A stretch of 43,961 bases of DNA from IMG/VR virus record IMGVR_UViG_3300010355_000140. One strand, given 5' to 3'. The notes beneath the pieces are model-generated. The model did no database searches, was not told where the DNA came from, and saw nothing but the letters and a program-made list of their open reading frames with translations. Shown piece after piece: positions 1-26,727 of this stretch; within the stretch, counting starts at the first letter, position 1; every line of letters begins with the position of its first letter. This stretch comes from a virus. The position numbers and the translations under genes were made by a program.

Positions 1-1413
1 CATCTGATTGCCCACCCCATCGCCGGTCTGTTCGCCGGGATGGGGCTGGGCAAAACTGCTTCCACGCTGGCCGCGCTCGACCACCTGTTCGTGAATGGCA
101 TGAGCAAGGGTGCGCTTATCATCGCCCCGCTCCGCGTCTCTCTGTTCACATGGCATGACGAAGCCGCGCTCTGGTTCCCCTACATGAAGGTCGTCTCCCT
201 CCGCACCAAAGAAGGGCAGGCCGCATGGGATCGCGGTGAGGCGTGCATCTACACCCTCAACTACGAGTCCCTCTTCATCCCCCGGCGCAACCCCGATACT
301 GGTGAGGTCAAGGACCACGGCATCCTTGGGAAGCTGCTGAAAGGCAAACGAGCCAGCCAGCTACCCGTGGACGTGGTGGTCTGGGACGAACTCTCAAAAG
401 CAAAGAACCCCAGCTCGAAGCGCATCCGCGAGTTCCGCAAGCACCGCCGGAAGTTCGCCCGCCATTGGGGGCTGACCGGCACGCCGGTTTCTGAATCCCA
501 TCTCGACCTGTTCGGCCAGATTCGCCTGCTCGACGACGGAGCCACGTTCGGTCACACGCTGGGCAACTACCAGCTGCGCTATTTCCATGACGTGAACGAG
601 GAGCGTGCCCGCATCGCCCGCGCTCGCGGTGATGATCCGGTTTACCCCAAGTGGGAGGTCCGGCCTGAATGCGAGGGCATGATCGAGAAGGCCATCGAGC
701 CGATCGTCCTGACCCTCCGGTCGGAGGACTGGCTGAAAATCCCGCCGACGATCGTGGAGGACATCGACGTGGCGCTGCCCGGCAAGGTCCAGCCGCTCTA
801 CAAGAAGATGTCGAAAGACCTGCTGGCCATGATGGAGGACACGAAGGTGAAGGCGGTCAACCGCGCCGTCCTTTCCGGCAAGCTCCGGCAGATCGTCGGC
901 GGTGCCGTTTACTCGGAAGAGATCGACACCGGGGAAACCGGCGTGGTGACGGAACTCCACGATGCCAAAATTCACGCGCTCCGTGCCCTCTGGGAGCGCG
1001 AGGGCCGCGAGCCGATGATTGTGGCCATCCAATACAAGCACGAGCGTGAGCGCATCCTGCGTGCGTTTCCCGAGGCGGTGGAATTTCACTCCGACCGGCT
1101 GGCCGATTGGAACGCTGGGAAAATCCCCCTGCTGGTCGCTCACCCCAAGTCAATGAGCCATGGGCTGAACATGCAGAGCGGCGGCACCCGCATCTGCTGG
1201 TTCACCATGCCCTACTCACGGGACGACTACGAACAAACCAATGCCCGGCTGGCCCGGCAGGGGCAGAAGCACATCACCCGCGTCTTCCGTCTCCTCTCAC
1301 CCGGCACGATCGATGACGCGGTGGTCGCGGCGATCGAGAACAAGGGGGCCAATCAGGCTGGCTTCATGGAGCTGCTGGCACGCAACCTGCGCACGCTGCG
1401 CGAGGCAGCTTAA
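1..1413 (+). CDS. SNF2/Rad54-family helicase, 3' part (gene is split by the linearisation point; 5' part at 43793-43961)
   Basis: Frame-1 reading frame is open from base 1. Motifs seen: GLGKT Walker A, VVWDELS (DExx box), helicase-C motif LLVAHPKSMSHGLNMQ. nt 1-127 equal 43835-43961, so the ATG at 43793 is in frame. Confidence 0.85.
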   Translation, partial: HLIAHPIAGLFAGMGLGKTASTLAALDHLFVNGMSKGALIIAPLRVSLFTWHDEAALWFPYMKVVSLRTKEGQAAWDRGEACIYTLNYESLFIPRRNPDTGEVKDHGILGKLLKGKRASQLPVDVVVWDELSKAKNPSSKRIREFRKHRRKFARHWGLTGTPVSESHLDLFGQIRLLDDGATFGHTLGNYQLRYFHDVNEERARIARARGDDPVYPKWEVRPECEGMIEKAIEPIVLTLRSEDWLKIPPTIVEDIDVALPGKVQPLYKKMSKDLLAMMEDTKVKAVNRAVLSGKLRQIVGGAVYSEEIDTGETGVVTELHDAKIHALRALWEREGREPMIVAIQYKHERERILRAFPEAVEFHSDRLADWNAGKIPLLVAHPKSMSHGLNMQSGGTRICWFTMPYSRDDYEQTNARLARQGQKHITRVFRLLSPGTIDDAVVAAIENKGANQAGFMELLARNLRTLREAA

Positions 1414-1844
1414 TCCGTCTCGTCCGGCACGAGGACGTGCGGGCCACGCTTGAGCTTCGCTGTCAAGCGGAGAATCGCGGAGGTGGATTCTTTGGATGCC
1501 TGCTCCATCCGCTCCTCGCGGATCGCCGACATCCGGGTCGCTTCGATCTGGGCGACGGTGAACTCCTTCATGGTGGCTAGCTGCTGGGTGTTCAGCTCGG
1601 CAATGAGGGTCTGCAATGCGATCCGCTCCCTGTCACTGGCCAACCCTTTTTTGTAGAGAATCCAACCAAGAACCCCGGCGATCAAAAGGGCAATCAACGC
1701 GATGCCCATACGCTCATAGAGCTGGTTGCCAGCATTGATCTGTTCCGCCGATGGCAGATTTCCAATGATGCCATAAACGGTGGCGACCGTCCCGGTAGGT
1801 AGGGAAGCCAGAGAGAACAGGGTGAGGAACTCGCGCATGTTCAT
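1410..1844 (-). CDS. membrane protein, lysis-associated (holin or i-spanin-like)
   Basis: 144 aa. Two hydrophobic segments (LTLFSLASLPTGTVATVYGIIG; IALIALLIAGVLGWILY) followed by a ~75-aa charged helical tail. Last gene of the late arm, just downstream of the endolysin. Confidence 0.45.
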   Translation of the reverse strand: MNMREFLTLFSLASLPTGTVATVYGIIGNLPSAEQINAGNQLYERMGIALIALLIAGVLGWILYKKGLASDRERIALQTLIAELNTQQLATMKEFTVAQIEATRMSAIREERMEQASKESTSAILRLTAKLKRGPHVLVPDETD

Positions 1845-1884
1845 TGCTAGCTAACTACCACCGGGACGGTCAACTCTCAAACGA

Positions 1885-2454
1885 TCATTTTGTGAACTGG
1901 AAGTGCATCGCATCCCGGTTCCAGAATGCCCCCGCCGGGAGGAATCCATGGCGGGCGAACACCACCATCACGGACAGCGGCATGGTCGCGCCGGTCGGCC
2001 AGTGGGTGTGGTTGCCGTTGTTGTCCGGATCGAAGTCAAGGGCGGCACCGTAGGCGTGCAGGGACGGCACGGAGCCACCCCGGACGGAGCGGTTGTTGTA
2101 GCAGCCCGCGTAGCGTTTCAGGATGGCCCGGCCCTCCTCGAACGTGTTCAGCTCCACCAGCACACGGGTGAGCGGTTCAGCGATCTTGGCGTGGCACAGG
2201 ATGGTCTTCACCGCCTTGCCTTCATAGAGGACGACAACACCCTGCGGCACCGGCAGGTTGACCAGCTTCGACTCGTCCCCCGGATCACCGAAGAATTTGC
2301 GGAGCGAGGTCTGGTCGGACGCCGGGGCCGGGTGTTTCGCGGGCATGAACCCACGGAGATATTTCTGGGTTCCGAGGTTGGACTTGTTGCCCCAGAAACC
2401 GTCGTCGAGAACGCCTACGGTGCGCTGGGTTTTCTTGATTTCGTCCTTGGTCAT
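1885..2454 (-). CDS. endolysin: peptidoglycan-binding-like N-terminus + peptidase M15 (VanY / L-Ala-D-Glu peptidase type)
   Basis: 189 aa. N-terminal GVLDDGFWGNKS motif. Zn-site pattern SxHxxGxAxD (PSLHAYGAALDFD) and C-terminal DAMHFQF. Confidence 0.8.
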   Translation of the reverse strand: MTKDEIKKTQRTVGVLDDGFWGNKSNLGTQKYLRGFMPAKHPAPASDQTSLRKFFGDPGDESKLVNLPVPQGVVVLYEGKAVKTILCHAKIAEPLTRVLVELNTFEEGRAILKRYAGCYNNRSVRGGSVPSLHAYGAALDFDPDNNGNHTHWPTGATMPLSVMVVFARHGFLPAGAFWNRDAMHFQFTK

Positions 2455-2564
2455 TTGGTGACGTGGTTGGTGTGGTAGTATTTGATCGCGAGATCGGTGT
2501 AGAAGCGCCGGGCTTCCGGATCAACCTTGCGAACGGTGTTGCCCTTGGCGTCTGTCACAGTCAT
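2451..2564 (-). CDS. small hypothetical protein (37 aa), translationally coupled to the endolysin
   Basis: Below the ORF-track cutoff. ATG at 2564. Its TGA overlaps the endolysin ATG as ATGA (2451-2454). It fills an otherwise empty 141-nt gap. Product is hydrophilic (MTVTDAKGNTVRKVDPEARRFYTDLAIKYYHTNHVTK). Confidence 0.3.
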   Translation of the reverse strand: MTVTDAKGNTVRKVDPEARRFYTDLAIKYYHTNHVTK

Positions 2565-2595
2565 GCACGAAGGCAGGATCAGTGTGACAACCAAG

Positions 2596-3759
2596 CTAGC
2601 TAGGGGTATTATGTATTTTTTCATTGGTCAGTTGGAGATTTTTGAAAATGCGGGGGCGCTCCTCCACGGGAAGGCGCTCCCATCGGGCGAGCAACATGGC
2701 ATTGGTCTCGCGGGCCAGCGGGTATTTGCCGGTGTAGAACGCGGCGATGGCCAGTTCATCGAGCATTGCCCAATCGTAAACGTCACGACGGATGAAGAGC
2801 GGGTTGGGTGGCACGGGAATCTGAACCCCGATGCTGGCGTAGAGGAACGCCAGATTCCACATTCCCTTCGACCGGTAGTATTGGGCCAGCTCGTGCATCG
2901 ACTCTGCCCGGTATGGGCACGCTTGATAGGCACGGAGGAATGAGTCGATCGCCATGGCTTCATAATGATCGCGGGCTTCTTCGTTCGCATTGGGGTGGTT
3001 GGCGAAGCCGATGAAAATCCGACCGATCGAAAGGTAACAGTAGAACACCTCCTGATCCCAACCGCCTAATGCTGCCCGCTCCTCATAGGCATCGACCGCC
3101 AGATAAAGTTCGTTGGCATCACGGTAGCTCTGTGCCAAGTAGAACTGGTAGCGGCTGCGCATCTGGGGGTCGGTCTCGGTAGCCAACGCCTTCACCAGCA
3201 CGGCGGCATCATCCTGATACTTCCGGGGGTTCTGGTTGCGGGCGGAGTCCTGAATCTGGTCGAGGTGGAAGCCGGACGTGGTGCCGGTCGTGCCGCCTTT
3301 CCGATCCAAGAACTCATGGAGGACTCCCTTATACTGGTAGGGTGTCTGCCGGTTGCGGTAGATCAACGGGACCGTGTGGGCATGGATGCCGGTGTGGACC
3401 TCCACGTTGAAGAACTCTTGGGAGCCTAGCTGGCTACGGAACTCTTCCGGAGTGACGGATGGGACGAACACATTGTCCGCGTCCACCATGAAGCCATAGT
3501 CGAACTCCGGGAATCGTCTCGCCAAGTCCGCCATCACAAGGGAACGGTTGTGGGCGAAATCCTGCCACGTCGCATCGTAAACAAACATGGCTTGATCCAT
3601 GTCATTCTCTTCCGCCCATTTGAGGATCGTTTGGATCGTGCCGTCCGTTGAGCCGGTGTCGTGGATCAAGATGAAGTCCACATAGTCTTTCAAAGAATCG
3701 AGGCACCGCCGGATGACGTGTGCCTCGTTCTTAACGATCATTGTAAGTGCGATAGTCAT
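2596..3759 (-). CDS. family-2 glycosyltransferase (GT-A fold) with C-terminal TPR-like helical repeats
   Basis: 387 aa. N-terminus IALTMIVKNEAHVIRRCLDSLKDYVDFILIHDTGSTDGT is the classic GT2 opening. DxD-like VDAD is present. The C-terminal half is helical repeat-like (YLAQSYRDANELYLAVDAYEERA...). Confidence 0.8.
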   Translation of the reverse strand: MTIALTMIVKNEAHVIRRCLDSLKDYVDFILIHDTGSTDGTIQTILKWAEENDMDQAMFVYDATWQDFAHNRSLVMADLARRFPEFDYGFMVDADNVFVPSVTPEEFRSQLGSQEFFNVEVHTGIHAHTVPLIYRNRQTPYQYKGVLHEFLDRKGGTTGTTSGFHLDQIQDSARNQNPRKYQDDAAVLVKALATETDPQMRSRYQFYLAQSYRDANELYLAVDAYEERAALGGWDQEVFYCYLSIGRIFIGFANHPNANEEARDHYEAMAIDSFLRAYQACPYRAESMHELAQYYRSKGMWNLAFLYASIGVQIPVPPNPLFIRRDVYDWAMLDELAIAAFYTGKYPLARETNAMLLARWERLPVEERPRIFKNLQLTNEKIHNTPS

Positions 3760-3765
3760 CGCTGG

Positions 3766-4272
3766 CTAGAGGATCACCGAATGCTCCCCCTGTCTAGGAT
3801 ATTTCCCGGCGAAGCGTTCGCCGAAATCCCGCACCGCACCCAGATAGGTGTTGGCCAGTTTGAACCCCTGCTGCGCCATGATCGCATGGAACAGGTCGTT
3901 GCAGGTATCGATCTGGAGTGGCCAGTCCGCAACGCGGAGAAACTGGAAGCAGACATCATGGAACAGCGAACCCAGCCGGGTCGGCTCGAAGTCCGGGGTT
4001 CCCATCCACCGGCCAAGCAGCCACCACTTCGGCGAGCAGCCATTCCAAGCGTAGCCAGCCTTGATGGTGAGGACATCGTTTATGATGAATGCCCACTCCT
4101 TGCGGTTCACATCGCGGAGCGAAATCCATTTGTGGTGGAGCGCGAGCGCGGGGATACGCAGGGACACATCGGTGAGCAGCTTGAACCGGTAGGTTCCATG
4201 GGAATCGGGATCACTACCACGGAGTTCGCGGTAGTGAATCCCTTGGGCAAATTCAGGGAGTTTCAATTTCAT
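3766..4272 (-). CDS. hypothetical protein (weak DUF1353-like pattern)
   Basis: 168 aa. KAGYAWNGCSP ... LFHDVCFQF loosely resembles the DUF1353 pattern. Overlaps the upstream gene by 20 nt, so it is co-transcribed within the glycosyltransferase cassette. Confidence 0.45.
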   Translation of the reverse strand: MKLKLPEFAQGIHYRELRGSDPDSHGTYRFKLLTDVSLRIPALALHHKWISLRDVNRKEWAFIINDVLTIKAGYAWNGCSPKWWLLGRWMGTPDFEPTRLGSLFHDVCFQFLRVADWPLQIDTCNDLFHAIMAQQGFKLANTYLGAVRDFGERFAGKYPRQGEHSVIL

Positions 4273-5668
4273 GGAGCTTTGGCGCGTTACCTTCCCACGG
4301 GTCGCGAATCGACCGGTTCCGTTGGGCTGGTTTTTGTCCGCTGCGGGTTGATACCAGATCGTCCCGAGTGGTGAAAGCGTGATTCTCGCGGCAGTAGGTC
4401 TTGAGACCGCAGGCGTTGATCGCGTGCCAGAGGATGTGTTCGTAGCAGGTGCCGATCTGACGTGGCCCGACCGGACCTACCTGCTGGCTAGCCAGCTGGG
4501 CATAGGCATACTGGAGCCACGGGGTCTTGTCGAGCAGCGGCAGGTTGTAAACCACAGCCTGCGATCCGAAGAAATCCCGGACCTCCCACCAGCCATCGGG
4601 GCGTTCGATCGCGCTTTTGATGTCACCACCAAGCAGGATAGCTCCGCAGTCGTCGGGGAAGTCATCGAGCCGGAGCCACTTCTCATAGTTCTCCGGCACC
4701 ACCTCCGCGTCGTCCTCCAGCACGAGCATCGGCATGCGTGTCAGGTGGTCCATCTGGGTGGCCGCGAGATGGGAGAGTGAGCAGCCACGGATGGAATTGT
4801 TGGTGTCGCTCGCGTCCCAATCCGGGCAGATCGCTTCGAGGATGCGTGCGTTGCCGACCAGCTCCAACAGCTTCTTGGGGTATCGGTGGCGTGAAGCGGT
4901 GCGGTGGATGACGACGGCTTCCGGTGCAATGCCACGGGAGATGTCCCATGGGTTGATGAACTTCACGTTGGGGTATTGCTCGCGCATGGAGAAGTCCCAC
5001 ACCTCCCAGATTTTGTGATCGATACCACCAATCAGTTCCACCTTCTTGCCCAGCTTGGCGGCGATGATCGCGACGTGCAACCGGTCGGTGATGACCTTCC
5101 GGTATTTGTCGATGGTGGCAATGAACTGTGCAGCGGTCAGCCGGGTCTCTTCGGAGAATGGGTTGAAGGTAGTCACCTTCGCCATAGAGATGTCCGTGAC
5201 CTTCCGGTTGCCGGGACGCCAGTTGGTGCCGCTCTCACGGTCGGCACGCATCGCATAGAGCGTGTCAGCGACAGTGATGCCCCCCCATTCGGACAGGTCC
5301 AGCGAGAAAGCCAAGTCTTCGTGAAGCTCGGCGTTCAACCCATTCTCACGGGCGATCCGCAGCGACACCGCGCCACGGACGTAGATTTTGAGATTGGTAT
5401 ATCCCAGCTGTTTCAGCTTGCGGGCCGACTCGCCATCGAGCGAGCAAGGCAAAATGATGATCGGTGTGTCCTGATGCCAGCCACGGAGCGGTGCGCTGGT
5501 CTCGTTCCACCAATGACCCATGCCACCCCCTTTGAAGATGATGGGGGCGGCAGGGTCGTCGGGTGTATGGTTGGCAGCTTTGAGGATTGGCAGGGTAGCC
5601 AGTGCGATGGCTGAATCCCCGGCGTTGCCGGGGGCGGTGATGTATCGTTGATATGAGTCGATTTTCAT
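4253..5668 (-). CDS. two-domain enzyme: polysaccharide pyruvyl-transferase-like N-domain fused to a GT25-like glycosyltransferase C-domain
   Basis: 471 aa. N-domain has GNAGDSAI near the start and TDRLHVAIIAAKLGKKVELIGG..HKIW, the PS_pyruv_trans hallmarks. C-domain has GCSLSHLAA...MLVLEDDAEVVPENYEKWL, the GT25 (LgtB/Lic2B-type) pattern. It is the only gene here with a canonical SD (GGAGGgggtcATG). Confidence 0.65.
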   Translation of the reverse strand: MKIDSYQRYITAPGNAGDSAIALATLPILKAANHTPDDPAAPIIFKGGGMGHWWNETSAPLRGWHQDTPIIILPCSLDGESARKLKQLGYTNLKIYVRGAVSLRIARENGLNAELHEDLAFSLDLSEWGGITVADTLYAMRADRESGTNWRPGNRKVTDISMAKVTTFNPFSEETRLTAAQFIATIDKYRKVITDRLHVAIIAAKLGKKVELIGGIDHKIWEVWDFSMREQYPNVKFINPWDISRGIAPEAVVIHRTASRHRYPKKLLELVGNARILEAICPDWDASDTNNSIRGCSLSHLAATQMDHLTRMPMLVLEDDAEVVPENYEKWLRLDDFPDDCGAILLGGDIKSAIERPDGWWEVRDFFGSQAVVYNLPLLDKTPWLQYAYAQLASQQVGPVGPRQIGTCYEHILWHAINACGLKTYCRENHAFTTRDDLVSTRSGQKPAQRNRSIRDPWEGNAPKLHEIETP

Positions 5669-5702
5669 GACCCCCTCCGGATACCAGCCAGTGATGCAGT
5701 TG

Positions 5703-6488
5703 TCAAACAGGAGTTGATCCAGTCCAGCCAGTATCTTGGTCCGCGTTGGAGAGCTTCACCAGATAGAAGTTGGCATCTCCACCGTTCGGCACGCCGGAGC
5801 CGGTCGGACCTGTGGGGCCGGTCGGACCTGTGGGGCCGGGTGGTCCCAGCGGGCCGGTTGGACCCGTGGGTCCGGTAGCGCCGGTAGCGCCGGTAGCGCC
5901 GGTAGCGCCGGTAGCTCCAGCGCCAGTGGGGCCGGTCGGACCCGTGGGGCCGGTCGGTCCAGTTGGACCCGTGGGGCCGACAACGGTGTCCACAACAATG
6001 TTGCCGATGCGGATGATAAGCTCGTCGATCGTGATGACCTTCAACTGGTTTGTGATCTTGTCGAAGTAGAGGACCGAATCGTTGCGCGTAAGTGGCAGCG
6101 TTGATTCGGAATCCTCTGGTTCAAGGAAATCGAACGTGATGGCCCGGCCACCGAAATACGGGAAGTTGGCGGCGATCTCCTGAACGATGTGTGTCAGCTT
6201 GTTGAGTGCCGCCGTCACGTCCTCCGCTGCCGGGGTAGCGTTCACCGGGAACGCGATGATCTGCGTGCGCGGTGTGCGCCGGACCAAGACGATCTCGGTG
6301 CCGGGGTTGATGATTGTGTTCGTGCGGAAACCTTCGCCGGGGGTGATCGTGAAGTTGGTATAGTTGTCCCCATTCACAAAGAGAAAGATGTCTTGTGGAT
6401 TGGAATAACTGATTGAGATAGGGTAAGGGGTCACGGTGGACCCGTTACCATCATACCGTTGGCTGCATTGTTCATTGGTGACGGACAT
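5703..6488 (-). CDS. tail fibre: T7 gp17-type N-terminal adaptor + collagen-like (GPT/GAT) stalk + 29-aa C-terminus
   Basis: 261 aa. [17 protein letters not shown] ... [10 protein letters not shown] ... [19 protein letters not shown] matches the T7 tail-fibre N-domain pattern. Residues encoded by 5793-5978 are G-X-Y triplets. Confidence 0.8.
5793..5978 (-). repeat. collagen-like triplet repeat coding region (6x GPT, GA interruption, 5x [15 protein letters not shown], 4x GPT, GSG)
   Basis: 9-nt periodic repeats (ggtcggacc / ggtagcgcc on the + strand). Translation is read directly from the track. Confidence 0.95.
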
Positions 6489-6510
6489 GGTGGCAGAGTA
6501 GCTAGGTGTT

Positions 6511-9500
6511 TTATTTCAGCAAGTCTTTCGGGATTTTGGCTTCCTTCAACCCGGCGTTGATCCGATCCTCCGAGATTCCCAGCTGGCGGAACATTCCGAT
6601 CGTGGCGTCGAAATCCTTCTTGAGTTTTTCTTCGGCGACACCCATCCGTGCCTCTGCGGTGGCCAGTTCTTCCGGGCTGGCTTTCGCTTTCTGGCGCTTG
6701 GTAAGATATGAGTTGATCTCGCGCATGCGACCGGCGAACTCCACGAGATTATCATTGATGAACTCCGGGGAATCCGTGGCCTTGCGGATCATGCGGATAC
6801 CAGCCATGTAAAGCATGAAGTCGCCGACGTTGTGTTTGACACCACCATAGTCGATCGATCCTTCGACCGATTTCTTGGCACGTTCCCATTGGCGGACGAC
6901 ACCCGGCTTCATCATGTTGTTATAAGCATAGTTGGCCAGCTTGGTGGTGGCGACATCGGGAGTATCAACCTCCTCATTGTAGATCGCCCGGCCACCCTTC
7001 TGACGGTCATTGTTAGAGACCATGTCAGCCGCCGTCTTGGTGAAGATGTTCATATCCACCAGTGCTTCTTGCAGGACTTCCGAGACTTCGGCATCGTCCT
7101 TGCCGACCGCAGAGATGGCGTTGTAGAACAACCCATATGGGATGACATAGCTGGGATCGAAGTAGGCCAGCTCCTTGTCATCAGCTCGGGTAAAGAGCAT
7201 CTCCTTGTTCTCGTTCCACGGCTCCATGGCCGCTTCGAGTTTCTCGCGTTCTTCACGGCTCCAGCCGGTGAACAGTTGGGAAGCTGCGTTCGTCGCGGCG
7301 TAGAGCAGCATACCCGTGCCAGCGAGACCAGCAATCCGTTTGAACCCATTGGCCATGAGGACAGGGTTGCCGGATTTGAGTTCCCGGCCAGCGAGGATGA
7401 CGTTGTTCTTGATGCCACGGATCAGCTCGTAGTTGAACGAAACGAAGGTAGGGACAAAGAGACCATACTGGCTGGCTTGGCGAAGCAACTTGGGCACAAG
7501 GTCATAGTTCTGGGTTGTGGCCCGCACGTCTTCGACGGCACGGTCCCACGCCTCCTTCACGGTGTCGCCATCCTTGGCGGCTGCGAGATGCTTGTTGAAC
7601 TCCACCGCGAGCGCATGGCGTTTGAACCCGTTGTCGGAGACCTGATAGAGCTTGCCAGCCTTGTCCTTGAATGTGGCGAATTTCTCACCAGCTGTGGCTT
7701 CAACCGCTCCGGCGAAGTCGCGGTCATAGACCCCGGAGTTGAGGAGACCGGCGATCTGCATCTCGGTTTCCATCTGCTTCCATGTGAGCTGTTCCGCACC
7801 ACCGGCCTTGAGATATGCCTTGGCGTCGGTGTTGTAGAAGGTCTCTTGATCCCCGGTGGTATAGGTGGCTGATTTCGTCTGGTCACGGAGAATGCTGGTG
7901 CCGAATTTAAGGAACGCCTTGGCTCCGTCCAGCTTGCGGTTGAACAACCGGCCAGCGATGAACTCCTGCGACAACGCACCATAGTAGTTCACGGCATACG
8001 AGCCGGGGTTGAGGATGACCATGTTGAATTTGCCGAATGCGCTGACAGCCGCCACGCTGCGGGCGAAAACCTGTGGAAGCGTGAGGTCGGTCGGCGTGGA
8101 ACGGAACGCATCTTCGAGTGCTTCGGCCAGCTCGGGATACGTGTAGAAATCCTCGCCGAATCCACGGAACGCTTTTTCGATCCCCGTGGGTCCGTCGCCG
8201 ATGCGCTTGATGAAGTCACCACCCTTGGCACGTTTCGCGAGACCAGTCTTCACCAGCCAGCTAGCCATGTCCGCTTGAGCTGCATATCCCAGCGCCATGT
8301 CAGAGACCTTCTTGCCGGTGACGCGAAGCTCGGCGATCGGGTCCGTCACTTCACCCAGAAGGGCACGGATTTCAGGTGCCAACTCCTTCCGCTTGATAAG
8401 GCTGGTCACGTCAACACGACCGGCGGACGAGTTGCCCATGAGGAAATCCTCGGCCTTGCTCGGGTGCAGCATCTCCTTGATCGATTGCTCGGCTTCCGCT
8501 TTGGTCAGGCCGGTGGATTGCAGATACTTCATCGCATCATCATATACCTGCGGGTGATCCCGGCGCACAGTGGTCTCGTTCCAGTTGGCCTTCGGGTCAT
8601 GGACCTTGTAGTGGCGGAACATATAGCTACCGATGTTGTCACCCAACGTCTGGGCCAACGTCTTTTGCATGAATGGTTGGATGTCCTGCGAGAATTTATC
8701 GATGAAGTCACGACCAGCTTGTGCCGTTGGCTGGATTTCCGTGGGGAGATTGGCCATGGCTTTCGCATCACCATGGATCGCGGCCCGGATGTCACTGGTG
8801 AGGTTGTCGGCGTAGGATTGGCGGAGGGCCGGTGCCTGCTTCTTCACGAGCTTGGCGACCTCTTTCTCCAGCTGGAGAGCGTTGCGGCTGGCCATCTGTT
8901 CATACCCATGGCGCATCCGCTCGTATTTGACGCGGGTGGCGTCGAGCGTGCGGCCCGGCGTGCGGCGTTGGCCAAGGAACTTCTGGAGACCATAGCGGAG
9001 CTTGGCACCACGAGAGTAGCTGCCGGTGACAGGGTCATCGGCGCGGGGTGGCATCGCTTCACGGACAAGCAGCTGGTCCTCGTGGGAGACCATCCTAGCC
9101 AGTCCCAAAGTGGAGTGGCGAAGACTGTCCGGGTCCACGGTGACGGAGCTTTCTTTCACAGTGTTGGACTTCGGAGAAAGCGGCTTGTATCGCGGATCGA
9201 GCGTGCGTGCGACCTCGGCCACTTCCTCCGGTGTGCGTGCGTTGAATGACTTGCCGTTCTTGGAAACGGTGAAGGTGCCATCCTCCTTGATGGCGATCGT
9301 CGGACGTGAGGTGTTGTCCTGCGCCCATTGCATGCGTGCTTCCGGGGACGCGAAGTTGCCCGGCGTGCTGGCTTCATCCAGACCGAACTCCTCGCGCACA
9401 CGGCGCATGGCTTCATTGGCGAAGTCACCGTATGACAGGAAATCGAGACCCTGTTCAGGCACGACCACACCGGCAGCTTCGAGAATCTCGCCAGCTTGCT

Positions 9501-11739
9501 TCTGCGCCCACACACGGCGGTGGTTATCGTCCATGATAGCCACCTCGGCTGGGACATTGACACCCAACGCTGCGAGCTGTGCTTCCATCTCCAGCTGCAC
9601 CTTCGTCTCGGTATCAGCTTGGGACATTGGGAAGTCCGGCAGCGGAATGCCAGCTTCGCGGAGTTCGGCTTCCGACCGGAACGTGAAGCCCATGTCCTGA
9701 TAACGCTTCTGGAGGAAATCAGCGGCTTGGTAGGCATTCAACTTCTGGATGTCCGCGATCTCGCTGCGATCGAGACCAACCATGTAGAGCAGGGATTCAT
9801 CGTGCAGCACCTTGCGGAGTGTCTGCTGGTCCATCTTGATGCCAGCGGCGTGGCCACCCACACTGAGCAGAGCCAGCGGGGCCACGGTGAACATGATGCG
9901 CGGGGACTCACGGATCAGGTTGGTCAGCTCGCCGCCTTCTTTGGTGAGGTTGTCCCAGAGGTTGCCATCGGTAAACAGGTTCACATCCTGAACGTCCGCA
10001 CCCATGGAGTGGTAGAGCTGCTGGACAACGGGGGCGGCACCCTCCTGCCCCAACTCCTGCACGGTTTCATACGCGAAAACCTGACTCCATTGGCCGACCA
10101 GTGAGTTGGTGCCGGGCATGCGTGCGAAAAGCGTCTTCATCTGCGTTCGGGCGAGACCGGCGTAGATGCCGGACGCGAGCGCGATTGCCTCCTCCTCGTC
10201 GGCGGTCAGCTCGGCGGTGCCCTTCTGCTGGCGCATGTTGGTCCGGAGCTGTTCTTGACGGGCACCAAAAACCACCGGAAGCCCGATGGGGGTGGCCGAC
10301 ATCGCCATCTCGGGGATCATACCAGCTAGGTTGTAAACAAAACCCTTGGGGGAATACCAGTCGCCGTAATCGATCTTGGCGACCGACTCGCGCCAGTTGG
10401 AAAGCTGGCTACCATAGAGCGCCACACGTTGCGCGTGGGATGCCTGCTGCTTGAGGGTCTCGCGCTCCATGGGTGTAACCCGACGTTTGCCCACGCCGGG
10501 GTTCCAGCGGGACTCTTCATTGGCCACCAGTGGATTTCCGGAGCGCCGGGGGTCGATGCCGGACAGCTGGGTGGAAAGCTGGCCGATGTCACCGACCGGG
10601 ATATTGCTCCAGACGTAGAGCGGTGCCTCGCCTTCAACGAGCTTGACCACGTTGGACGACAAGCCAGCTGCGGCACCACGGGAGAAGCCACCGAACGTCT
10701 TGTCCAGCGAACGCTCCAATGAGTTGGCTACACCGTTCATGAAGCCGTCCACGTCGCGCCCATGGGCTTTCGCGGTCTCGGCCAGCATGGCGTTGACGAT
10801 CTCGAACTCCTCGGGCTTCAACTCCGAGAATGCCTGCACCATCTCGTCCGTGGTGGCGAAGGTGCCGTCATCGAAGCGGGTGCCCTTCTCCTTGTCCACG
10901 GAGCTATCCTGCATGGCGATTGTGTTGAAAGCCTTCCGGACGAGCGGACGGATTTTACCGGCGTTCTCTTCCATGCCTTGATAGACATTGTTGCGGATGG
11001 TGCGGATCATCGTCCGCTCCTGATCGGTGAGGTTGGTTTCACCAATGAGGGCGTCGAACGCCGCATCATCCTTGTCATCGGTCATGCCCATGAAGGAAGC
11101 GTGGGCATTGTCGCGGGCTGCGGTTTCAATCCGATCGCGGCGATCGAACTGGTTCACCTTGTCCAAACTCCAACGCTTCAATGCGCCGTAGGTCGGCTCG
11201 CTCTCACCCTCCTTGGCTCCGGTGATCTGGCGCACCAGTGGCTCCACCGCGCCGGATGCGATCTCACGGGCGGAGAACCCGAACAGCATCGACATCGACT
11301 TCTTGGTCAGGTATCGCTCGCGGCCAGCCTGCTTGTTGCCATAGGCGGTTTCATAGTTGCGCACGCGGCCCTCGTCACCTTGATCCTTGACGAATGCCTC
11401 GAACGTCGCGTCATCCGCCGTGAAGAGCGTGGCGATCGTGCGGGTGATGCGCTCGGTGTCTTCGGCGGCGGTGCGTGAGCGGGCTTCGGGCGCGAAGCTG
11501 AACGGGACTTCGCCACGGTTCACCTTGTAGCCACGGTAGGCCGCGAGGTTATCCTTGAGCTTGACCACTTCACCCTCCGTCTTCGCTCGGTCGAATGTGG
11601 GTGAAGGAGGTCCGACCTTCCCAGCTAGCTGGGCTTCGCGGGACTCCAGTGCGTCGAGGGTGGTGATCGCACGTTGATCGGCGACGATAGGATCAACCCC
11701 GATGTGGAAGGTGTCGAAAGTGAGAGGATCAAATTTCAT
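6511..11739 (-). CDS. large internal virion / DNA-ejection protein (T7 gp16 position), 1742 aa
   Basis: Giant ORF between the gp15-position gene and the tail fibre. Start is chosen at ATG 11739 (MKFDPL), 1 nt after the upstream TAA (11741-11743), rather than the track's 11832, which overlaps the upstream gene by 92 nt. No catalytic motif recognised. Confidence 0.6.
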
Positions 11740-11740
11740 G

Positions 11741-13342
11741 TTAGTCGGCTGGTGGAAGGAGTAGATCAAGGCGTTCGTTGAGGTTGCGCTGATCCGTGGA
11801 CCATTCCGGCAGAATGTCCGTAGGGGTGTCAATCACTTCGATCGTCTTCCCATTTTTCAGCGTCACTTTGCGGAGCTTGGGAGCGCGTTTGAACTCCTTC
11901 TCCTTCTCAACCTCGGCAGTATCATCAACTTCCTCCATGATCCGACCTTGGATTTTCCGCATGTATTCCGACGCACTCGTGGAGTCCGGTTCATGACCCT
12001 TGGCGATCTCGTCGTTCATCCACTCGTTCATGGCGTTCTGGAGCTTCTCGCGGAAGCGCACGGCATTGACCCCCTCGAACTGGCGGATTTCAGCCAGCTG
12101 GGCTTTGTTCTTCTCCGTCATATCCGGGTTGGCGTCCTGCGCCTTGCCGACGTTGACGTTGGCGAAGCCATTGGCGGTCTCCTTCACCATCGTTTCGATG
12201 TTGTCGGCGACGTTCTTGTATTTCTTGGCGCGGTCGCGGGATTCCGCTTCGGTGCCACCAGCTCCATCGGACCCCATGATGATCTGGAAACGCTGGGCCA
12301 GCTGGCCACGCAGCTCACCGGCACCGGGGCGCTTGCCCAAGGTGGCGAGGTTGGCGTTCATCTCACTATACCGGCGGGTATATTCATCACGGGTGATCTC
12401 ACCGTTTTTGAAGGCATCGAAGTCCGAACGGATTTTGTCACCCAGCAGGAACTTCTCGTCCGTGGGGATCGACGTGCGGCTGAAAAGGTTTTTCTTCGCG
12501 GCTTTCTTTTCCGAGTCCGTCATGTTGGGCGAGGAATCGACCAGCTCGTCGATAGCCTCCTGCGGCGTGTTCGGGTTGCGGTCGATCTCTTCCGTGAACA
12601 GGTCGAGTTCGGCGGTGGTCCGCTTGGCCCGCTCGGTCTCGGCGGCTTCACGGATTTTCGTTTTCTCGAAGTCCGTCCGGTCAGCCCACTTTCCACCGTC
12701 TTCGGTTGCTTTGATAGCAGCCATGGGGTCGTGCATGATCTCGGTCTGGGTGTCGAAGCTATCCCGGCTACGTGTGTTGCCAAGCTCATTGCCGTGGTGT
12801 TCAACCTCGTCAATGATGTTGTTGTCGTAGGCTTCATTGTTGAGCCGGTCCACCTCGTCAAAGTCACCACGGCGGCGGGCATTCTCCATGTCCGCCCGAT
12901 AGATGCCACTGGCTACCCTGCGGTTCTCCTTGAGTGCGCTGCCGGTGATGTTGATCGAGCTGCTGCCAGCGAACTCCATGAAGTGTGCATCGAGCTTCTC
13001 CATGACGACCGGTGCGAACTTCATGTCACCCATCTGGGTCTTGTAGGTAGCCAGCCGCTTCTCCCATTCAGGGAGCCACTGAGCAGGGTCGATGTTGTTT
13101 TCAACGATGTCCATCTGGAACTGCGCCTGCAACGCATCCATGGAGTGGACACCGCGCCGGTAGTCCGTCTGGTTGCGGATGTTCTGCGCTTCGCCAAGGT
13201 GCTTCTTGACCAGCTCCATCGAGCCACCGACCGCCTGCGCGATCTTGCCAGCGGATTCAGCACTCGCACGGAAAGCTCCAGAGGGGGCTTCCTCTCCGGA
13301 GTATCGTGGTGCAACAAGGATAGGGTTGGGGATGATGGCCAT
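11741..13342 (-). CDS. internal virion protein (T7 gp15 position)
   Basis: 533 aa, charged and helical. Assigned by synteny only. Confidence 0.5.
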   Translation of the reverse strand: MAIIPNPILVAPRYSGEEAPSGAFRASAESAGKIAQAVGGSMELVKKHLGEAQNIRNQTDYRRGVHSMDALQAQFQMDIVENNIDPAQWLPEWEKRLATYKTQMGDMKFAPVVMEKLDAHFMEFAGSSSINITGSALKENRRVASGIYRADMENARRRGDFDEVDRLNNEAYDNNIIDEVEHHGNELGNTRSRDSFDTQTEIMHDPMAAIKATEDGGKWADRTDFEKTKIREAAETERAKRTTAELDLFTEEIDRNPNTPQEAIDELVDSSPNMTDSEKKAAKKNLFSRTSIPTDEKFLLGDKIRSDFDAFKNGEITRDEYTRRYSEMNANLATLGKRPGAGELRGQLAQRFQIIMGSDGAGGTEAESRDRAKKYKNVADNIETMVKETANGFANVNVGKAQDANPDMTEKNKAQLAEIRQFEGVNAVRFREKLQNAMNEWMNDEIAKGHEPDSTSASEYMRKIQGRIMEEVDDTAEVEKEKEFKRAPKLRKVTLKNGKTIEVIDTPTDILPEWSTDQRNLNERLDLLLPPAD

Positions 13343-16698: not shown

Positions 16699-17382
16699 TC
16701 AAGGGGTGTGTCCGTAAGGGTCGCGTGCGTAGCCAGCGCCGGACCGGCGCGAGCGGAGGGATGGGGAGCCAGCCAGACGGGTTCCTTGGTCGCGGAAACC
16801 ATTTTCGCCGGAGTTGTCTTGAACGGAGTCATAGAACTGCGCGTTGGGCAGATCGTTCCGTTCATAGATTTCCAACATGCGTGCGGCCATGGCCGGGTTG
16901 TCGGCGAGGGCACCAGCGATGTAGTGGGCCATCAGACGGGCGACGGCAGCTTGGAAGTGGGGGGTCCACTTCGCCGGGTCTTGGTTGTCGAAGATATACT
17001 CCAGACCGATGTATTCATCATTGGACCAGATTTCACCGGACATGATCTGGAAGTGATCGATCTGACCAGTATAGGGTGGGTCAATGCCATCGACCGGCGG
17101 ACCGCCACGGTGGAGCTTCATCGTGCGGATATGATCCTCCGGCAAGTAGTGGGAGAACCGGAACGGGCCGAACAGGACGGCAGCGGGGTTGCGGGTGAGG
17201 ATGGCCGCTTTCTTGGCGAAGCTCCAGCGGTGCGCGGCGAGCGTCACCTTGCGGGCTTGGTCATAGAACTCGGCGCAAAGACGGACGAGCGCATTGGATT
17301 CTTGGGCGGCTTGGTCCAGCTGGGTGATGCGCCGGTCGCCGATGTGGGCAAGGGCGGTGTTGCAGATTTGAACAGGGTCCAT
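16699..17382 (-). CDS. tail tubular protein A (gp11-like adaptor)
   Basis: 227 aa. N-terminus ICNTALAHIGDRRITQLD...AHRWSFAKK fits the gp11-family pattern. Synteny supports the call. Confidence 0.7.
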   Translation of the reverse strand: MDPVQICNTALAHIGDRRITQLDQAAQESNALVRLCAEFYDQARKVTLAAHRWSFAKKAAILTRNPAAVLFGPFRFSHYLPEDHIRTMKLHRGGPPVDGIDPPYTGQIDHFQIMSGEIWSNDEYIGLEYIFDNQDPAKWTPHFQAAVARLMAHYIAGALADNPAMAARMLEIYERNDLPNAQFYDSVQDNSGENGFRDQGTRLAGSPSLRSRRSGAGYARDPYGHTP

Positions 17383-18019: not shown

Positions 18020-18982
18020 TTAGACCGACTCGTCGGCCTTGATGATGACGACACCCTTCTCTTCGAGGCGGGTAGCGCCAGCGGTGAACTTGAACCGGAT
18101 ACGGTCGCCACCGGTGTCGCGGTCGCGCCACACGTCGGTCTCGGCCTTTTTCCAGTCGCCAAGGACGACCTTCGACTTGAGCCACATCGGGATGTCTTGG
18201 ATGTTGCCGGTCTTGCGTTCCTTGAGTCCGGTGGTGACGAGCAGCTTGACACCGAAGAAGGTTTCCAAGATGCCGGTGTCGAAGGGTTTGCCGCCAGTGA
18301 ACGAACGGAAGTCCGAGCTGGTGACAATGGCTTCGTTCCACAGGTTGAGGAGCGACTTCGGCGAAGCAGCGAGGCAGAGCTGGTCGGGACCGTCGAGGAC
18401 GGAATCCTGACCCCACGCATCGTTCTCCATGAAGATGCGGACACCTTCACGAATCTTGCGGGCGGTCAGACCGGTGTTGGCACCAGTGATGTTGACGGCG
18501 ACGATCTGGCTGGATGGGAGAGCGATGGTGGACATCGCTTCTTCCGCACCGGCACCGATGGTAGCGGTGTCGAGCATACCAGCGAAGATGATGTCTTCCA
18601 TCTTGCGCTCACCGGCTTCCATCAGACGCTTCGCGGCCTGCGGCATCGGAACGCCAAGGCGGTCGAGCTTCCAGCCGTCGTCTTCGTCGAATTTGACCTT
18701 CTGGTTGAAGGATTTTGGGAACATGAACCGACGAGCGGTAGGCAGTTCGATGGCTGGCTTGTTCTCGTGACGAGCGGTTTTCTCTTCGAGTTCAAGTTCA
18801 CCATACTGCTCAACCGTGTGATAGCGACCGGAGGCGGTGCCGTCGTAGGTGATGTAGGGCTTGAGGGCGTTGTGCTTCTTCGAAAGAAGAGCGTTCCATT
18901 GTTCGCCGTAGGAAATACGTGCGTGTTCGTGCGGGGTCATTGGGGTGTTGGGGTAAATTTGGGGTTGAAGAATTAACTCCAT
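18020..18982 (-). CDS. major capsid protein
   Basis: About 320 aa, at the T7 gp10 position after the scaffold gene and bracketed by terminators. Start is set at ATG 18982 (MELILQPQ). The track's 19021 start is a TTG and is an alternative. Confidence 0.7.
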   Translation of the reverse strand: MELILQPQIYPNTPMTPHEHARISYGEQWNALLSKKHNALKPYITYDGTASGRYHTVEQYGELELEEKTARHENKPAIELPTARRFMFPKSFNQKVKFDEDDGWKLDRLGVPMPQAAKRLMEAGERKMEDIIFAGMLDTATIGAGAEEAMSTIALPSSQIVAVNITGANTGLTARKIREGVRIFMENDAWGQDSVLDGPDQLCLAASPKSLLNLWNEAIVTSSDFRSFTGGKPFDTGILETFFGVKLLVTTGLKERKTGNIQDIPMWLKSKVVLGDWKKAETDVWRDRDTGGDRIRFKFTAGATRLEEKGVVIIKADESV

Positions 18983-19133
18983 CCTAGCTGGTTCCGGTTG
19001 ACTCCCTTGCGGGTTTGCCAACCCTACCTTTCGGAAGGGTCGCCACTGTCATTGAGTCCGGAACGGTTTCCCAACAGCACGTAAGCTGGCTAATGTGTTG
19101 TCACAAGTTAGCCAGTCTGGCAACAGGAAAATG

Positions 19134-20735: not shown

Positions 20736-20978
20736 TTAATGGTGGAATTTAGCCAGCCAGTCAACCACTTGTTTGTGGCCATCCCGTGTCGCAGCCATGA
20801 TGACACAGTTGTCAGCTGGGTTACTAGCCAGTTCTTCGGCACGGAAAGATGGCTGGTCAGCCTCCCACGCCTCGCGGAGTGCGAGAAGGGCATCCTCCCG
20901 GACCACGGGGTCCGGGCTGAAAATCCTCATGATCCGCGCCCGGAAATCGGCGTTCTTGCGTTTCTGGTCAGTGGTCAT
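20736..20978 (-). CDS. hypothetical protein (80 aa)
   Basis: Its ATG overlaps the portal TGA as ATGA (20975-20978), indicating translational coupling. Confidence 0.5.
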   Translation of the reverse strand: MTTDQKRKNADFRARIMRIFSPDPVVREDALLALREAWEADQPSFRAEELASNPADNCVIMAATRDGHKQVVDWLAKFHH

Positions 20979-26592: not shown

Positions 26593-26653
26593 GCGTTCAA
26601 ATTTGAGCATGAAAAATAAATTCCGCATTTTTCACTAAAAGCTAATTTGCCGA

Positions 26654-26682: not shown

Positions 26683-26727
26683 CCGACCAGTGCTAGCACG
26701 AAGCTAGCCGCCAGAAAACAAACCAAA

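Follow-up and report, generated by a model that had tools for sequence, protein, structure and literature searches.

BclA of Bacillus anthracis forms a surface filament whose collagen-like (GPT)n stalk carries abundant O-glycans on Thr; the glycan is rhamnose/anthrose-based, with no pyruvate that we know of. To our knowledge, SgtA of Clostridioides difficile is the only enzyme known to glycosylate Thr-rich collagen stalks. SgtA is cytoplasmic, and its acceptor is the Y-position Thr of G-X-T repeats; in vitro, it modifies the GPT repeats of BclA3 with beta-O-GlcNAc on Thr, and no extending enzyme could be identified (PMC7157674). Other enzymes that combine a GT-A domain with helical repeats, Listeria GmaR and Bacillus SunS/ThuS, differ in substrate, which is flagellin for GmaR and the sublancin peptide for SunS, the latter making an S-linkage. 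Among phages, mycobacteriophages encode glycosyltransferases that decorate structural proteins of the same phage, and the glycans shield the virion (Freeman et al. 2023, via PMC12619734). As summarized in that citing article, the modified sites are C-termini of the capsid and tail-tube subunits rather than a collagen-like fiber, and neither an SgtA-like enzyme nor a pyruvyltransferase appears. Mimivirus encodes collagen-like proteins together with glycosyltransferases for them (L230, R699, and R655), and R655 is a GLT25D-like candidate collagen glycosyltransferase (PMC9546862). Finally, in the WbbY-WbbZ system of the Klebsiella O1b antigen, the pyruvyltransferase caps a sugar added by the glycosyltransferase, and phage-encoded copies exist (PMC10629545).

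The phage locus analyzed here resembles the SgtA/BclA3 pair in having a GT-A/GT2 enzyme of ~360-390 aa with a TPR-like domain, homologous over both parts, and a GPT/GAT collagen-like gene nearby. It differs in that the putative substrate is a phage tail fiber, not a spore-surface (exosporium) protein, and in that the enzyme is accompanied by a GT25-like::pyruvyltransferase fusion. The analogy to BclA drawn in a first-pass annotation of this DNA was right in spirit, although SgtA/BclA3 is the closer characterized precedent.

Results

The window, a 43,961-nucleotide stretch of viral DNA (IMG/VR record IMGVR_UViG_3300010355_000140), represents the complete genome of a T7-like phage and has a terminal overlap of 127 nt. 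All four ORFs of the first-pass annotation were found again on the minus strand, and its description of a tightly packed block held on re-measurement: the gaps separating the genes for the tail fiber, the fusion protein, a 168-aa protein, and the GT2 enzyme are 34, -20, and 6 nt, with the start of the 168-aa gene overlapping the fusion stop by 20 nt. The reported lack of a terminator agrees with our scan, which nevertheless carries no information on this point, as sites resembling terminators or promoters are as frequent as in shuffled sequence. The endolysin gene, which had been placed directly after the GT2 gene, is separated from it by a gene for a spanin-like 57-aa lipoprotein with a hydrophobic N-terminus and an LPSC lipobox (2451-2624, minus strand). 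The lysis cassette begins with this lipoprotein, which lies outside the glycan system, and the late operon ends with the endolysin (Peptidase_M15_4; 1885-2454, minus strand; PF13539, E = 3.3e-7; phrog_17001, E = 1.5e-20). The glycan cassette is packed between the fiber and lysis genes.

In a gene order like that of T7, the gene for the 261-aa fiber, the candidate glycosylation substrate (5703-6488, minus strand), comes directly after that for the internal virion protein of 1773 aa. The fiber starts with a tail-attachment domain (aa 1 to ~165; aa 10-105 match the tail fiber family phrog_2710, E = 9e-5), which is followed by a collagen-like stalk and, at the C-terminus, by a tail of 29 aa, with no globular domain at the distal end. 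The collagen-like tract (aa 171-232; 5793-5978, minus strand) bears out the annotated 62 residues of G-X-Y repeats with Thr-filled Y positions: it begins with six GPT triplets, continues through GA and five GAT triplets, ends in GSG, and comprises 20 G-X-Y triplets, 12 of them GPT, with Thr at 17 of the 20 Y positions. The two-residue GA, absent from the earlier description, is the single break in register. The Pfam Collagen model (PF01391) scores barely above threshold (27.9 versus 27.2 bits). The tract is far beyond chance. In a second sample's assembly, it is one GAT triplet shorter. In the genome region examined, no other G-X-T tract is regular or as long, and the fiber itself showed no second obvious acceptor rich in Ser or Thr.

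The 387-aa product of the GT2 gene (2596-3759, minus strand) is an SgtA-like predicted protein O-glycosyltransferase with an N-terminal GT2/GT-A domain (motifs DTGSTD and DAD) and a C-terminal TPR-like helical domain. The GT2 assignment was upheld (PF00535, 26.2 bits versus a threshold of 23.3; phrog_13126, E = 8e-25), and the catalytic motifs are invariant across relatives. SgtA, taken from locus L198, where its gene adjoins bclA3, aligns across both domains (hhalign 99.6%, E = 1.5e-23, 296 columns; BLASTP E = 1e-17), with ~24% identity over the profile alignment. The enzyme also matches SunS (TIGR04195), and its best solved-structure matches, GmaR (22ao, E = 3e-7) and ThuS/SunS (7msk/7msp), cover only the N-terminal 100-120 residues. 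As for the TPR label, Pfam TPR is sub-threshold (E = 0.036), and the label is supported instead by homology to SgtA, SunS, and GmaR. These closest characterized relatives are all protein or peptide glycosyltransferases, and the suggestion that the TPR domain may serve as the substrate-recognition module fits with them.

The 471-aa fusion protein (4253-5668, minus strand) joins a pyruvyltransferase half to a GT-A half. The N-terminal domain (aa 1 to ~245; 4934-5668, minus strand) is assigned as a WbbZ/Pvg1p-type ketal pyruvyltransferase (PF04230, E = 2.2e-14), and it is closest to WbbZ in sequence, fold, and motifs (6X1L, E = 1.3e-9, Foldseek 8e-12; Pvg1p, Foldseek 7e-6). Its motifs N15-x-G17-D18, R98-xxx-S102, and H207 are complete and are those defined for WbbZ (PMC10629545). 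The C-terminal domain (aa ~250-471; 4253-4921, minus strand) is GT25-like at the level of fold and motifs: its RGCSLSH and LVLEDDA (DxD) motifs are invariant, a Foldseek search of its AF2 model (pLDDT 85.6) against viral models (BFVD) returned almost exclusively GT25-annotated proteins from giant viruses, and profile A2 of its family matches Mimivirus R655 (9CRZ, E = 1.6e-4). It also aligns with the GT25 domain of P0076 (hhalign 80%, E = 1.5e-5). The GT25 model itself (PF01755) was not reached by the fusion, and 5 of 10 relatives match it with E = 0.022 at best. Across relatives, all pyruvyltransferase motifs and the DxD are invariant, and either domain can come first (L007 is among the examples); judged from these motifs and domain orders, the fusion appears to be active, with its two functions coupled. 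A related cassette of a pyruvyltransferase and a glycosyltransferase, in L203, adjoins the gene for a Ser/Pro-rich tail protein. Of the three glycan-building activities annotated for this block, profile searches found the pyruvyltransferase and GT2 families, and the third stands only as a GT25-like fold.

The third protein of the block is DUF1353-like (168 aa; 3766-4272, minus strand; phrog_1158, E = 7.8e-12), and its homolog P0165 carries PF07087. Its AF2 model (pLDDT 92.9) had no PDB neighbor, and homologous genes lie directly upstream of the endolysin in the unrelated phages L202, L203, and L007. Rather than a glycan enzyme, it is probably a component of the tail or of the lysis module.

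Genes for GT2-TPR enzymes are linked to collagen-like genes in both bacteria and viruses. Among 80 bacterial species loci, a collagen-like ORF lies within 10 kb in 51 and within 2 kb in 42, and Thr occupies at least 70% of the collagen Y positions in 39. Viral loci have a collagen-like ORF in 41/80 cases, at a distance of at most 300 nt in 37/80, mostly as the next same-strand gene, and these collagen-bearing neighbors are tail-fiber-like proteins. In both sets, the collagen-like product is usually rich in Thr. The phage gene studied here is unlike most of these viral relatives, and unlike sgtA, in lying two genes from its collagen-like partner rather than adjacent to it. The density of collagen regions drops ~8-fold from <4 kb to 6-10 kb away from the GT2-TPR gene, and the linkage is kept after clustering at 70% identity (31/51 bacterial and 9/17 viral clusters). 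In Luteolibacter, the likely host lineage, a secreted collagen-like protein with GAT/GPT repeats is encoded two genes away from a 45%-identical glycosyltransferase. By comparison, among 24 viral loci picked by the GT25-like domain, a set that is not a random-genome background, a collagen-like ORF was present in 1.

Discussion

On balance, homology and gene linkage lead us to favor a system in which the fiber is glycosylated by an SgtA-like initiator and the glycan is extended by the fusion with a hexose and a pyruvate cap. The cassette would then be expressed late, work in the cytoplasm, and O-glycosylate the tail fiber of the phage itself. The GT2-TPR enzyme would place the first sugar on the Y-position Thr of the GPT/GAT repeats, drawing on a UDP-sugar from the host, of which UDP-GlcNAc, the donor for SgtA and GmaR, is the most likely, while its TPR-like helical domain would grip the repeat peptide. 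The GT25-like domain of the fusion would next attach a hexose, and the WbbZ-type domain would use phosphoenolpyruvate to form a ketal pyruvate on the terminal sugar, giving an anionic glycan coat on the collagen stalk. We infer from the same evidence the fiber as acceptor, the sugars used, the order of steps, and the extension of the SgtA-like product by the fusion. Such a coat would plausibly shield or stabilize the fiber, or act as a functional surface, as the fiber is without a globular receptor-binding domain. This chemistry would be unlike that of Mimivirus, which is hydroxylysine-linked and needs a lysyl hydroxylase; the phage tract offers Thr, not Lys, and no hydroxylase was seen in the phage.

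The proposal in the first-pass annotation that the Thr-rich stalk is a substrate gains strong independent support from the SgtA homology and from the family linkage to (G-X-T)n genes. The acceptor of the fusion is the weak link, because relatives of the fusion also follow non-collagen fibers. In L001, L002, and L004, the homologous gene is embedded between fiber-like genes and follows either a charged, Thr-poor collagen fiber (L004) or collagen-free fibers (L001 and L002). These loci, together with 13 viral contigs, share the N-domain of the fiber but lack the G-X-T tract, and none has a GT2-TPR gene, which counts in favor of the stalk as acceptor of the SgtA-like enzyme; since the synteny of this fiber lineage is inherited, they are not independent events. 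Because fusion homologs occur there without a GT2-TPR gene, the fusion does not need the SgtA-like product and may be an independent two-step unit with a different acceptor, such as the conserved fiber N-domain or another tail protein, with the SgtA-like enzyme alone acting on the G-X-T tract. The presence of the fusion's domains in only 1 of 160 GT2-TPR loci agrees with such a division of labor. We nevertheless regard it as rather unlikely, as natural SgtA-like::GT25 fusions (P0076 and P0080) and the co-occurrence of GT25-like and GT2-TPR genes in other phages (L019 and L025) show that GT25-type domains partner this initiator, the genes in the window are packed translationally in one block, and the fiber is without another obvious Ser/Thr-rich acceptor.

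It is somewhat less probable still that the host envelope is the target, with the fusion, perhaps joined by the GT2 enzyme, capping LPS, CPS, or other lipid-linked glycans with a pyruvylated sugar, either to mask receptors against superinfecting phages or to keep progeny from being caught on debris. Lipid-linked glycans are indeed the acceptors of the nearest characterized relatives of the fusion. For the pyruvyltransferase domain, the closest relative with a solved structure is WbbZ, which caps the O1 antigen of Klebsiella, and a phage-borne wbbYZ pair is active on host O antigen (PMC10629545). For the transferase domain, these relatives are bacterial GT25 enzymes, which build LOS (Pfam description). 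The fusion is also not tied to collagen fibers, and homologs occur in an apparent prophage of an Akkermansiaceae genome. WbbY and WbbZ are encoded by separate genes and their acceptor is lipid-linked O-polysaccharide, whereas the phage activities are fused, in a late structural operon, beside a predicted protein O-glycosyltransferase. However, no integrase or lysogeny module was found among the ORFs scanned in the complete genome, and a cassette placed among late structural and lysis genes would have little time for receptor remodeling. The three cassette proteins lack TM segments, and membrane partners such as a flippase, a polymerase, Wzx/Wzy, or Gtr-type proteins were not found. Moreover, the relatives of the GT2 enzyme are protein or peptide transferases, and the family tracks collagen-like genes, not polysaccharide loci.

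Protein targets other than the adjoining fiber, such as capsid or tail-tube subunits, the 307-aa protein at 19202-20125, or collagen-like proteins on the host surface, appear improbable. Mycobacteriophage glycosylation does hit capsid and tail-tube C-termini, as summarized in the citing article (PMC12619734), and collagen-like proteins of the G-X-T type occur in the presumed host lineage. The GAT/GPA-rich tract at the N-terminus of the 307-aa protein (aa 21-54; minus strand) is real, as annotated, but short and irregular, with at most five consecutive triplets. Its gene lies between the portal and major capsid genes, and no family assignment was obtained for it; at this scaffold position, the protein may be absent from the virion, making its role as a second substrate speculative. 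Within the genome region examined, the one regular G-X-T tract, which is also the longest, belongs to the fiber, and in viral relatives the glycosyltransferase adjoins collagen-bearing fiber genes. It is very improbable that the fusion or the GT2-TPR protein is instead a non-catalytic virion component, a receptor-binding or fiber-assembly factor replacing the missing distal domain, for although only 29 residues follow the collagen tract, no further fiber or RBP gene comes after the fiber in ORF order, and the fusion gene lies among fiber genes in L001, L002, and L004, the catalytic motifs of all three domains are invariant, the fusion has no PHROG structural-protein match, and cellular GT2-TPR homologs are ordinary cytoplasmic enzymes.

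A collagen-like fibre and an SgtA-like glycosyltransferase

The 261-aa tail fibre (5703-6488, minus strand) begins with an N-terminal domain common to other podophage fibres, probably trimeric to judge from tail-fibre homology, and continues into a collagen-like tract of 62 residues. This tract comprises 20 triplets, 12 of them GPT and 5 GAT, with one GA register break; Thr occupies 17 of the 20 Y positions, and the match to PF01391 lies just over threshold. As only 29 residues follow the tract (window 5703-5792), the fibre is without a globular distal domain, and no further fibre or receptor-binding gene comes after it. A relative of the fibre at locus L004 likewise has a short Cys-rich terminal tail. 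The tract is polymorphic in length between samples (window 5793-5978), as the same phage from another sample (L218, 2190-2966) encodes a 258-aa fibre with four GAT triplets instead of five, with no other difference from the window in the fibre or in the fusion protein.

The first-pass annotation described three minus-strand genes packed behind the fibre, with spacings of 34, -20, and 6 nt, and all four ORFs and these spacings were recovered. They encode the pyruvyltransferase::GT25-like fusion (471 aa, 4253-5668), a small protein (168 aa, 3766-4272), and the 387-aa GT2-TPR enzyme (2596-3759), the last separated from the endolysin by a gene for a 57-aa lipoprotein. Promoter and terminator counts in a scan were the same as in shuffled sequences, and co-transcription is thereby neither supported nor refuted.

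The GT2-TPR enzyme carries most of the weight in our interpretation. Its GT2 domain was borne out by PF00535 (26.2 bits against a cut-off of 23.3), and the motifs D34-T-G-S-x-D39 and D93-A-D95 do not vary among 18 relatives and align with DTGSTD and DADD of SgtA from Clostridioides difficile. SgtA combines GT-A and TPR domains in 358 aa, its gene directly precedes bclA3, and in vitro it transfers beta-O-GlcNAc onto Thr residues within GPT repeats (PMC7157674). With the SgtA sequence taken from a metagenome contig, located via the published cloning primer, BLASTP aligned the first ~100 residues of the two enzymes (E 1e-17, 39 % over 102 aa), and hhalign with the family profile extended the homology to 296 columns, including the helical domain (probability 99.6 %, E 1.5e-23). 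This alignment reaches query residue ~330 and SgtA residue ~309, and RxxFY, GWxE, and PRAE are found in both. The TPR-like repeats noted earlier therefore stand as a helical domain with homology to its SgtA counterpart, although not as a Pfam TPR domain, for which the match is sub-threshold (TPR_12, E 0.036). Among solved structures, the best matches are the flagellin O-GlcNAc transferase GmaR of Listeria and the peptide S-glycosyltransferases ThuS and SunS, all of which have helical repeat domains.

With a GT2 domain, a TPR-like domain, homology to SgtA, and linkage to a (G-X-T)n gene, the enzyme has the features of an SgtA-like protein and is predicted to be a Thr O-glycosyltransferase of G-X-T repeats that, like SgtA, would use UDP-GlcNAc to form a beta-linkage. 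The fibre gene lies 1.9 kb upstream of the GT2-TPR gene in the same gene block. The earlier proposal that the phage glycosylates its own fibre thus divides into two parts of unequal strength: the sequence evidence strongly suggests that GT2-TPR targets the G-X-T stalk of the fibre, and it argues moderately for a pyruvylated glycan being built upon that stalk. The mechanism proposed for the first step is that of SgtA and BclA3.

In several relatives (proteins P0076, P0080, P0071, P0081, P0060, and P0130), GT2-TPR is fused to GT25 (PF01755), FkbM methyltransferase, Anp1-like, or GT9 domains. Such fusions suggest that a single initiating step is followed by differing glycan elaboration, and they fit an initiating enzyme whose product is elaborated afterwards.

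Linkage of the GT2-TPR family to collagen-like genes

The GT2-TPR family numbers more than 4,000 proteins, found at no fewer than 563 genomic and 578 viral places. Linkage was counted in 80 bacterial and 80 viral loci, using all six-frame ORFs and scoring those with at least 8 consecutive G-X-Y triplets. A collagen-like ORF was present in 51/80 bacterial and 41/80 viral loci, many of the loci scored negative being short contigs; it lay within 2 kb of the glycosyltransferase gene in 42 of the bacterial loci and within 300 nt in 37 of the viral ones. Thr filled at least 70 % of Y positions in 39 bacterial and 10 viral loci, and the link was retained in 31 of 51 bacterial and 9 of 17 viral clusters at 70 % identity. 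Collagen regions are ~8x denser less than 4 kb from the glycosyltransferase gene than at 6-10 kb, with a sharp peak at 1-2 kb in the viral loci. The bacterial loci cover Alpha- and Gammaproteobacteria, Acidobacteria, Actinobacteria, Planctomycetes, and Verrucomicrobia, and the link is therefore not merely inherited synteny.

Among the viral loci, the collagen-bearing ORF is downstream of the glycosyltransferase gene in 35, nearly always on the same strand, and is typically ~1,050-1,170 aa in length. The collagen-bearing viral neighbours scanned match tail-fibre families, in part outside the collagen tract; most of their PHROG matches fall in the low-complexity tract, and outside it phrog_8763, 8469, 4591, and 9116 support the assignment as tail fibres.

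As a check, the first-pass annotation had put forward the co-occurrence of collagen fibres with GT25-like and pyruvyltransferase genes, and this did not materialize: a collagen ORF is present in only 1/24 viral GT25-like loci. The collagen association belongs to the GT2-TPR enzyme and not to the fusion. The lineage of the fibre itself offers a narrower comparison. The same fibre N-domain without a G-X-T tract occurs at 16 loci (L001, L002, L004, and 13 viral contigs), and the GT2-TPR gene is found in 0/16 of these, whereas the window has both the tract and the enzyme. A close relative, L030, has the same order of fusion, small protein, GT2-TPR, and lysis genes on a contig that ends before the fibre. 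This pattern fits the proposed glycosylation of the fibre but represents a single evolutionary event.

Some of the bacterial tracts run to hundreds of triplets. In Mesorhizobium and Bradyrhizobium (L056, L063, L064, L066, L075, and others), the glycosyltransferase neighbours reach up to ~600 G-X-Y triplets with 96-100 % Thr at Y, and no description of these giant collagen-like proteins of rhizobia was found in the literature searched. In Luteolibacter, the gene for a 45 %-identical glycosyltransferase and that for a secreted collagen-like protein of 570 aa with GAT/GPT triplets lie two genes apart, and an FkbM methyltransferase is encoded there as well. The locus in Luteolibacter pohnpeiensis (L031/L032, 8006-13957) also holds two paralogous PEP-CTERM proteins, and the 570-aa protein combines ~60 GAT/GPT triplets with a C-terminal region resembling sulfatase-modifying factor.

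A pyruvyltransferase fused to a GT25-like domain

The N-terminal half of the fusion is a predicted ketal pyruvyltransferase, which would cap a terminal sugar in a PEP-dependent manner. This part of the first-pass annotation was upheld by PF04230 (54.5 bits against a threshold of 25.3, E 2.2e-14) together with a two-Rossmann fold. The half matches Klebsiella WbbZ (6X1L) in sequence (E 1.3e-9), and Foldseek with a model of pLDDT 85.6 returned the same protein (6x1l, E 8e-12, TM 0.72 normalised to the target) and yeast Pvg1p (5ax7, E 7e-6). Kelly and co-workers define this enzyme class by NxGD, Rxxx(S/T), and His motifs, which in WbbZ are N29xG31D32, R121, and H226, and WbbZ caps terminal beta-Gal with pyruvate from PEP (PMC10629545). 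Aligned with WbbZ, the fusion shows these motifs as N15-A-G-D18, R98-GAV-S102, and H207, and its relatives conserve them.

The C-terminal half is a GT-A domain in which RGCSLSH (R294-G-C-S-L-S-H300) and LVLEDDA (L317-E-D-D320) are invariant. The AF2 model, motifs, and profile together give it the GT-A fold, the DxD, and the GC-x-LSH...LEDD core of GT25. Its family profile matches Mimivirus R655 (9CRZ) over these motifs (E 1.6e-4), R655 being a GLT25D-like candidate collagen glycosyltransferase (PMC9546862), and hhalign against the PF01755-positive domain of P0076, one of the GT2-TPR fusion proteins, gave 80 % (E 1.5e-5). The best fold matches among viral models in BFVD are nearly all annotated as GT25. 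When the whole fusion was compared with the PDB by Foldseek, the pyruvyltransferase half dominated, and the GT-A matches to LH3 and PBCV-1 A64R were weak. PF01755 itself gave no match to the fusion even at E up to 10, and matched 5 of 10 relatives with a best E of 0.022. The earlier reading thus holds at the level of fold and motif but not as Pfam GT25 membership, and because the latter was not reached we name the domain GT25-like by fold rather than filing it as GT25 proper; it is a predicted inverting beta-hexosyltransferase. Pyruvyltransferase and GT25-like domains are fused in both orders (e.g. viral locus L007), which argues for consecutive action, with a sugar being added and then pyruvylated.

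Stand-alone GT25-like genes of ~220 aa are also present in a set of viral contigs (L015-L029), where they stand after a conserved block of ~315, 95, 127, and 135 aa and before genes of ~270-425 aa. In two of these (L019 and L025), an SgtA-like glycosyltransferase is encoded ~7 kb downstream of the GT25-like gene.

The small protein encoded between the fusion and the GT2-TPR enzyme (3766-4272) is DUF1353-like. Its AF2 model (pLDDT 93) has no neighbour in a PDB structure search (best E 0.15), and the PHROG label of tail assembly chaperone was not substantiated. In phages that are otherwise unrelated (L202, 10001-10516; L203, 8964-9461; L007, 10383-10703), homologues immediately precede the endolysin, a position that argues against a dedicated role in glycan synthesis, and the homology, structure, and gene-position data gave no sign of this protein in glycan chemistry.

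Virion or host as the site of modification

The second part of the proposal, a pyruvylated glycan on the stalk, depends on the acceptor of the fusion. In L004 the homologue of the fusion comes after a collagen fibre that is charged and poor in Thr, and in L001 and L002 after YadA-like, non-collagen fibres, in each case amid fibre-like genes and without a GT2-TPR gene, and GT2-TPR loci almost never hold the domains of the fusion. The fusion is therefore independent of the SgtA-like product, and in this phage it may either extend that product or act on another acceptor. A siphophage-like locus (L203, 3232-8230) encodes a 441-aa tail-module protein with a ~70-residue Ser/Pro-rich tract, then a 945-aa methyltransferase::pyruvyltransferase of the same subfamily (E 5e-52 to our own domain model), and then a GT7C-like glycosyltransferase. 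We take these genes for a second candidate cassette for virion glycosylation, differently composed, and they hint that such cassettes may generally serve virion proteins with tracts prone to O-glycosylation.

The less probable alternative, that the cassette modifies host glycans rather than the fibre, draws on the biology of WbbZ, for which one phage carries a wbbYZ pair acting on the O antigen of its host (PMC10629545). Serotype-converting cassettes of the Gtr/WbbYZ type, however, belong to temperate phages, are expressed from the prophage, and work with membrane partners or a lipid-linked acceptor. The window departs from this type: membrane-like segments are absent from all three cassette proteins, no integrase was found among the scanned ORFs of the complete genome, and the cassette lies, by gene position, within the late structural and lysis block. 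The genome is complete at about 43,834 bp, as bases 1-127 are an exact copy of 43835-43961, as in a circular-assembly overlap, and the same phage was independently assembled in other samples. A T7-like late block occupies the minus strand between about 25.3 and 1.4 kb. It starts with the terminase large subunit, the small subunit (25671-26186) lying just upstream, and continues through the portal (20975-22636), two proteins at the scaffold position, the major capsid protein (18020-19021), tail tubular proteins A (16699-17382) and B (13864-16695), and internal virion proteins including a 1773-aa giant (6511-11832), to end with the fibre, the cassette, and the lysis cassette. The replication genes (DNA polymerase, a gp2.5-like SSB, and an exonuclease) are on the plus strand. 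Lysogenic conversion is accordingly down-weighted for want of an integrase, and glycosylation of the fibre is the reading we prefer.

The host lineage is likely Verrucomicrobiota, the phylum in which the cassette proteins have their nearest cellular homologues (an Akkermansiaceae MAG and Luteolibacter). A near-identity DNA search of window 1-12000 against 50,697 GenBank phages and a tblastn search with the fusion both returned zero matches, so there is no catalogued relative usable for annotation transfer. One of the scaffold-position proteins (307 aa, 19202-20125) gave no family match; its N-terminus is a Thr-rich pseudo-collagen that is too irregular for a triple helix. Elsewhere, an early gene (26647-27891) matches phrog_249 ('porphyrin biosynthesis'/ATPase, E 4e-46), and a 219-aa ORF (42991-43650) has a weak match to the PliI lysozyme inhibitor (E 8e-4).

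Precedents and implications

Virion self-glycosylation appears in the searchable literature only for capsid and tail-tube proteins of mycobacteriophages, as summarised in PMC12619734. Mimivirus provides a precedent for a virus glycosylating its own collagen-like proteins, although the chemistry differs. In a search of open-access papers and preprints, no publication tied a glycosyltransferase to tail fibres of the collagen-like kind; within that literature such fibres are common and their modification is unexplored. A much broader reading, which we regard as improbable at present, is that SgtA-like GT2-TPR enzymes constitute a general and previously unrecognised system for glycosylating collagen repeats in several phyla of bacteria and in phage lineages numbering in the hundreds, and that in phages like this one a pyruvate-capped O-glycan on the stalk is the functional surface of a fibre without a protein receptor-binding domain, the phage-made glycan mediating host recognition or evasion. 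Should the cassette itself act on the fibre as proposed, whether or not this broader reading holds, it would be the first tail-fibre glycosylation system and the first phage-made pyruvylated protein-linked glycan found in the literature searched. The SgtA/BclA3 mechanism would become a broad class of one enzyme family acting with (G-X-T)n proteins, covering Alpha- and Gammaproteobacteria, Acidobacteria, Actinobacteria, Planctomycetes, Verrucomicrobia, and many uncultured phages, with relevance to phage-host recognition, to the shielding of therapeutic phages from immunity and defence, and to engineered glycosylated collagen-like biomaterials.

The only cultured GenBank phage with a full-length member of the GT2-TPR family is the Tunturiibacter jumbo phage Tunturi_5 (PP885688.1, 28905-38126; L201), in which the SgtA-like gp35 is annotated as a 'beta-1,4-glycosyltransferase' and a tail fibre gene with GPT/GAT tracts, gp29 (27 triplets, 16 Thr), is 3.7 kb away. 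Four paralogous proteins of ~285 aa (gp30-33) are encoded between gp29 and gp35, and this phage is a possible experimental model.
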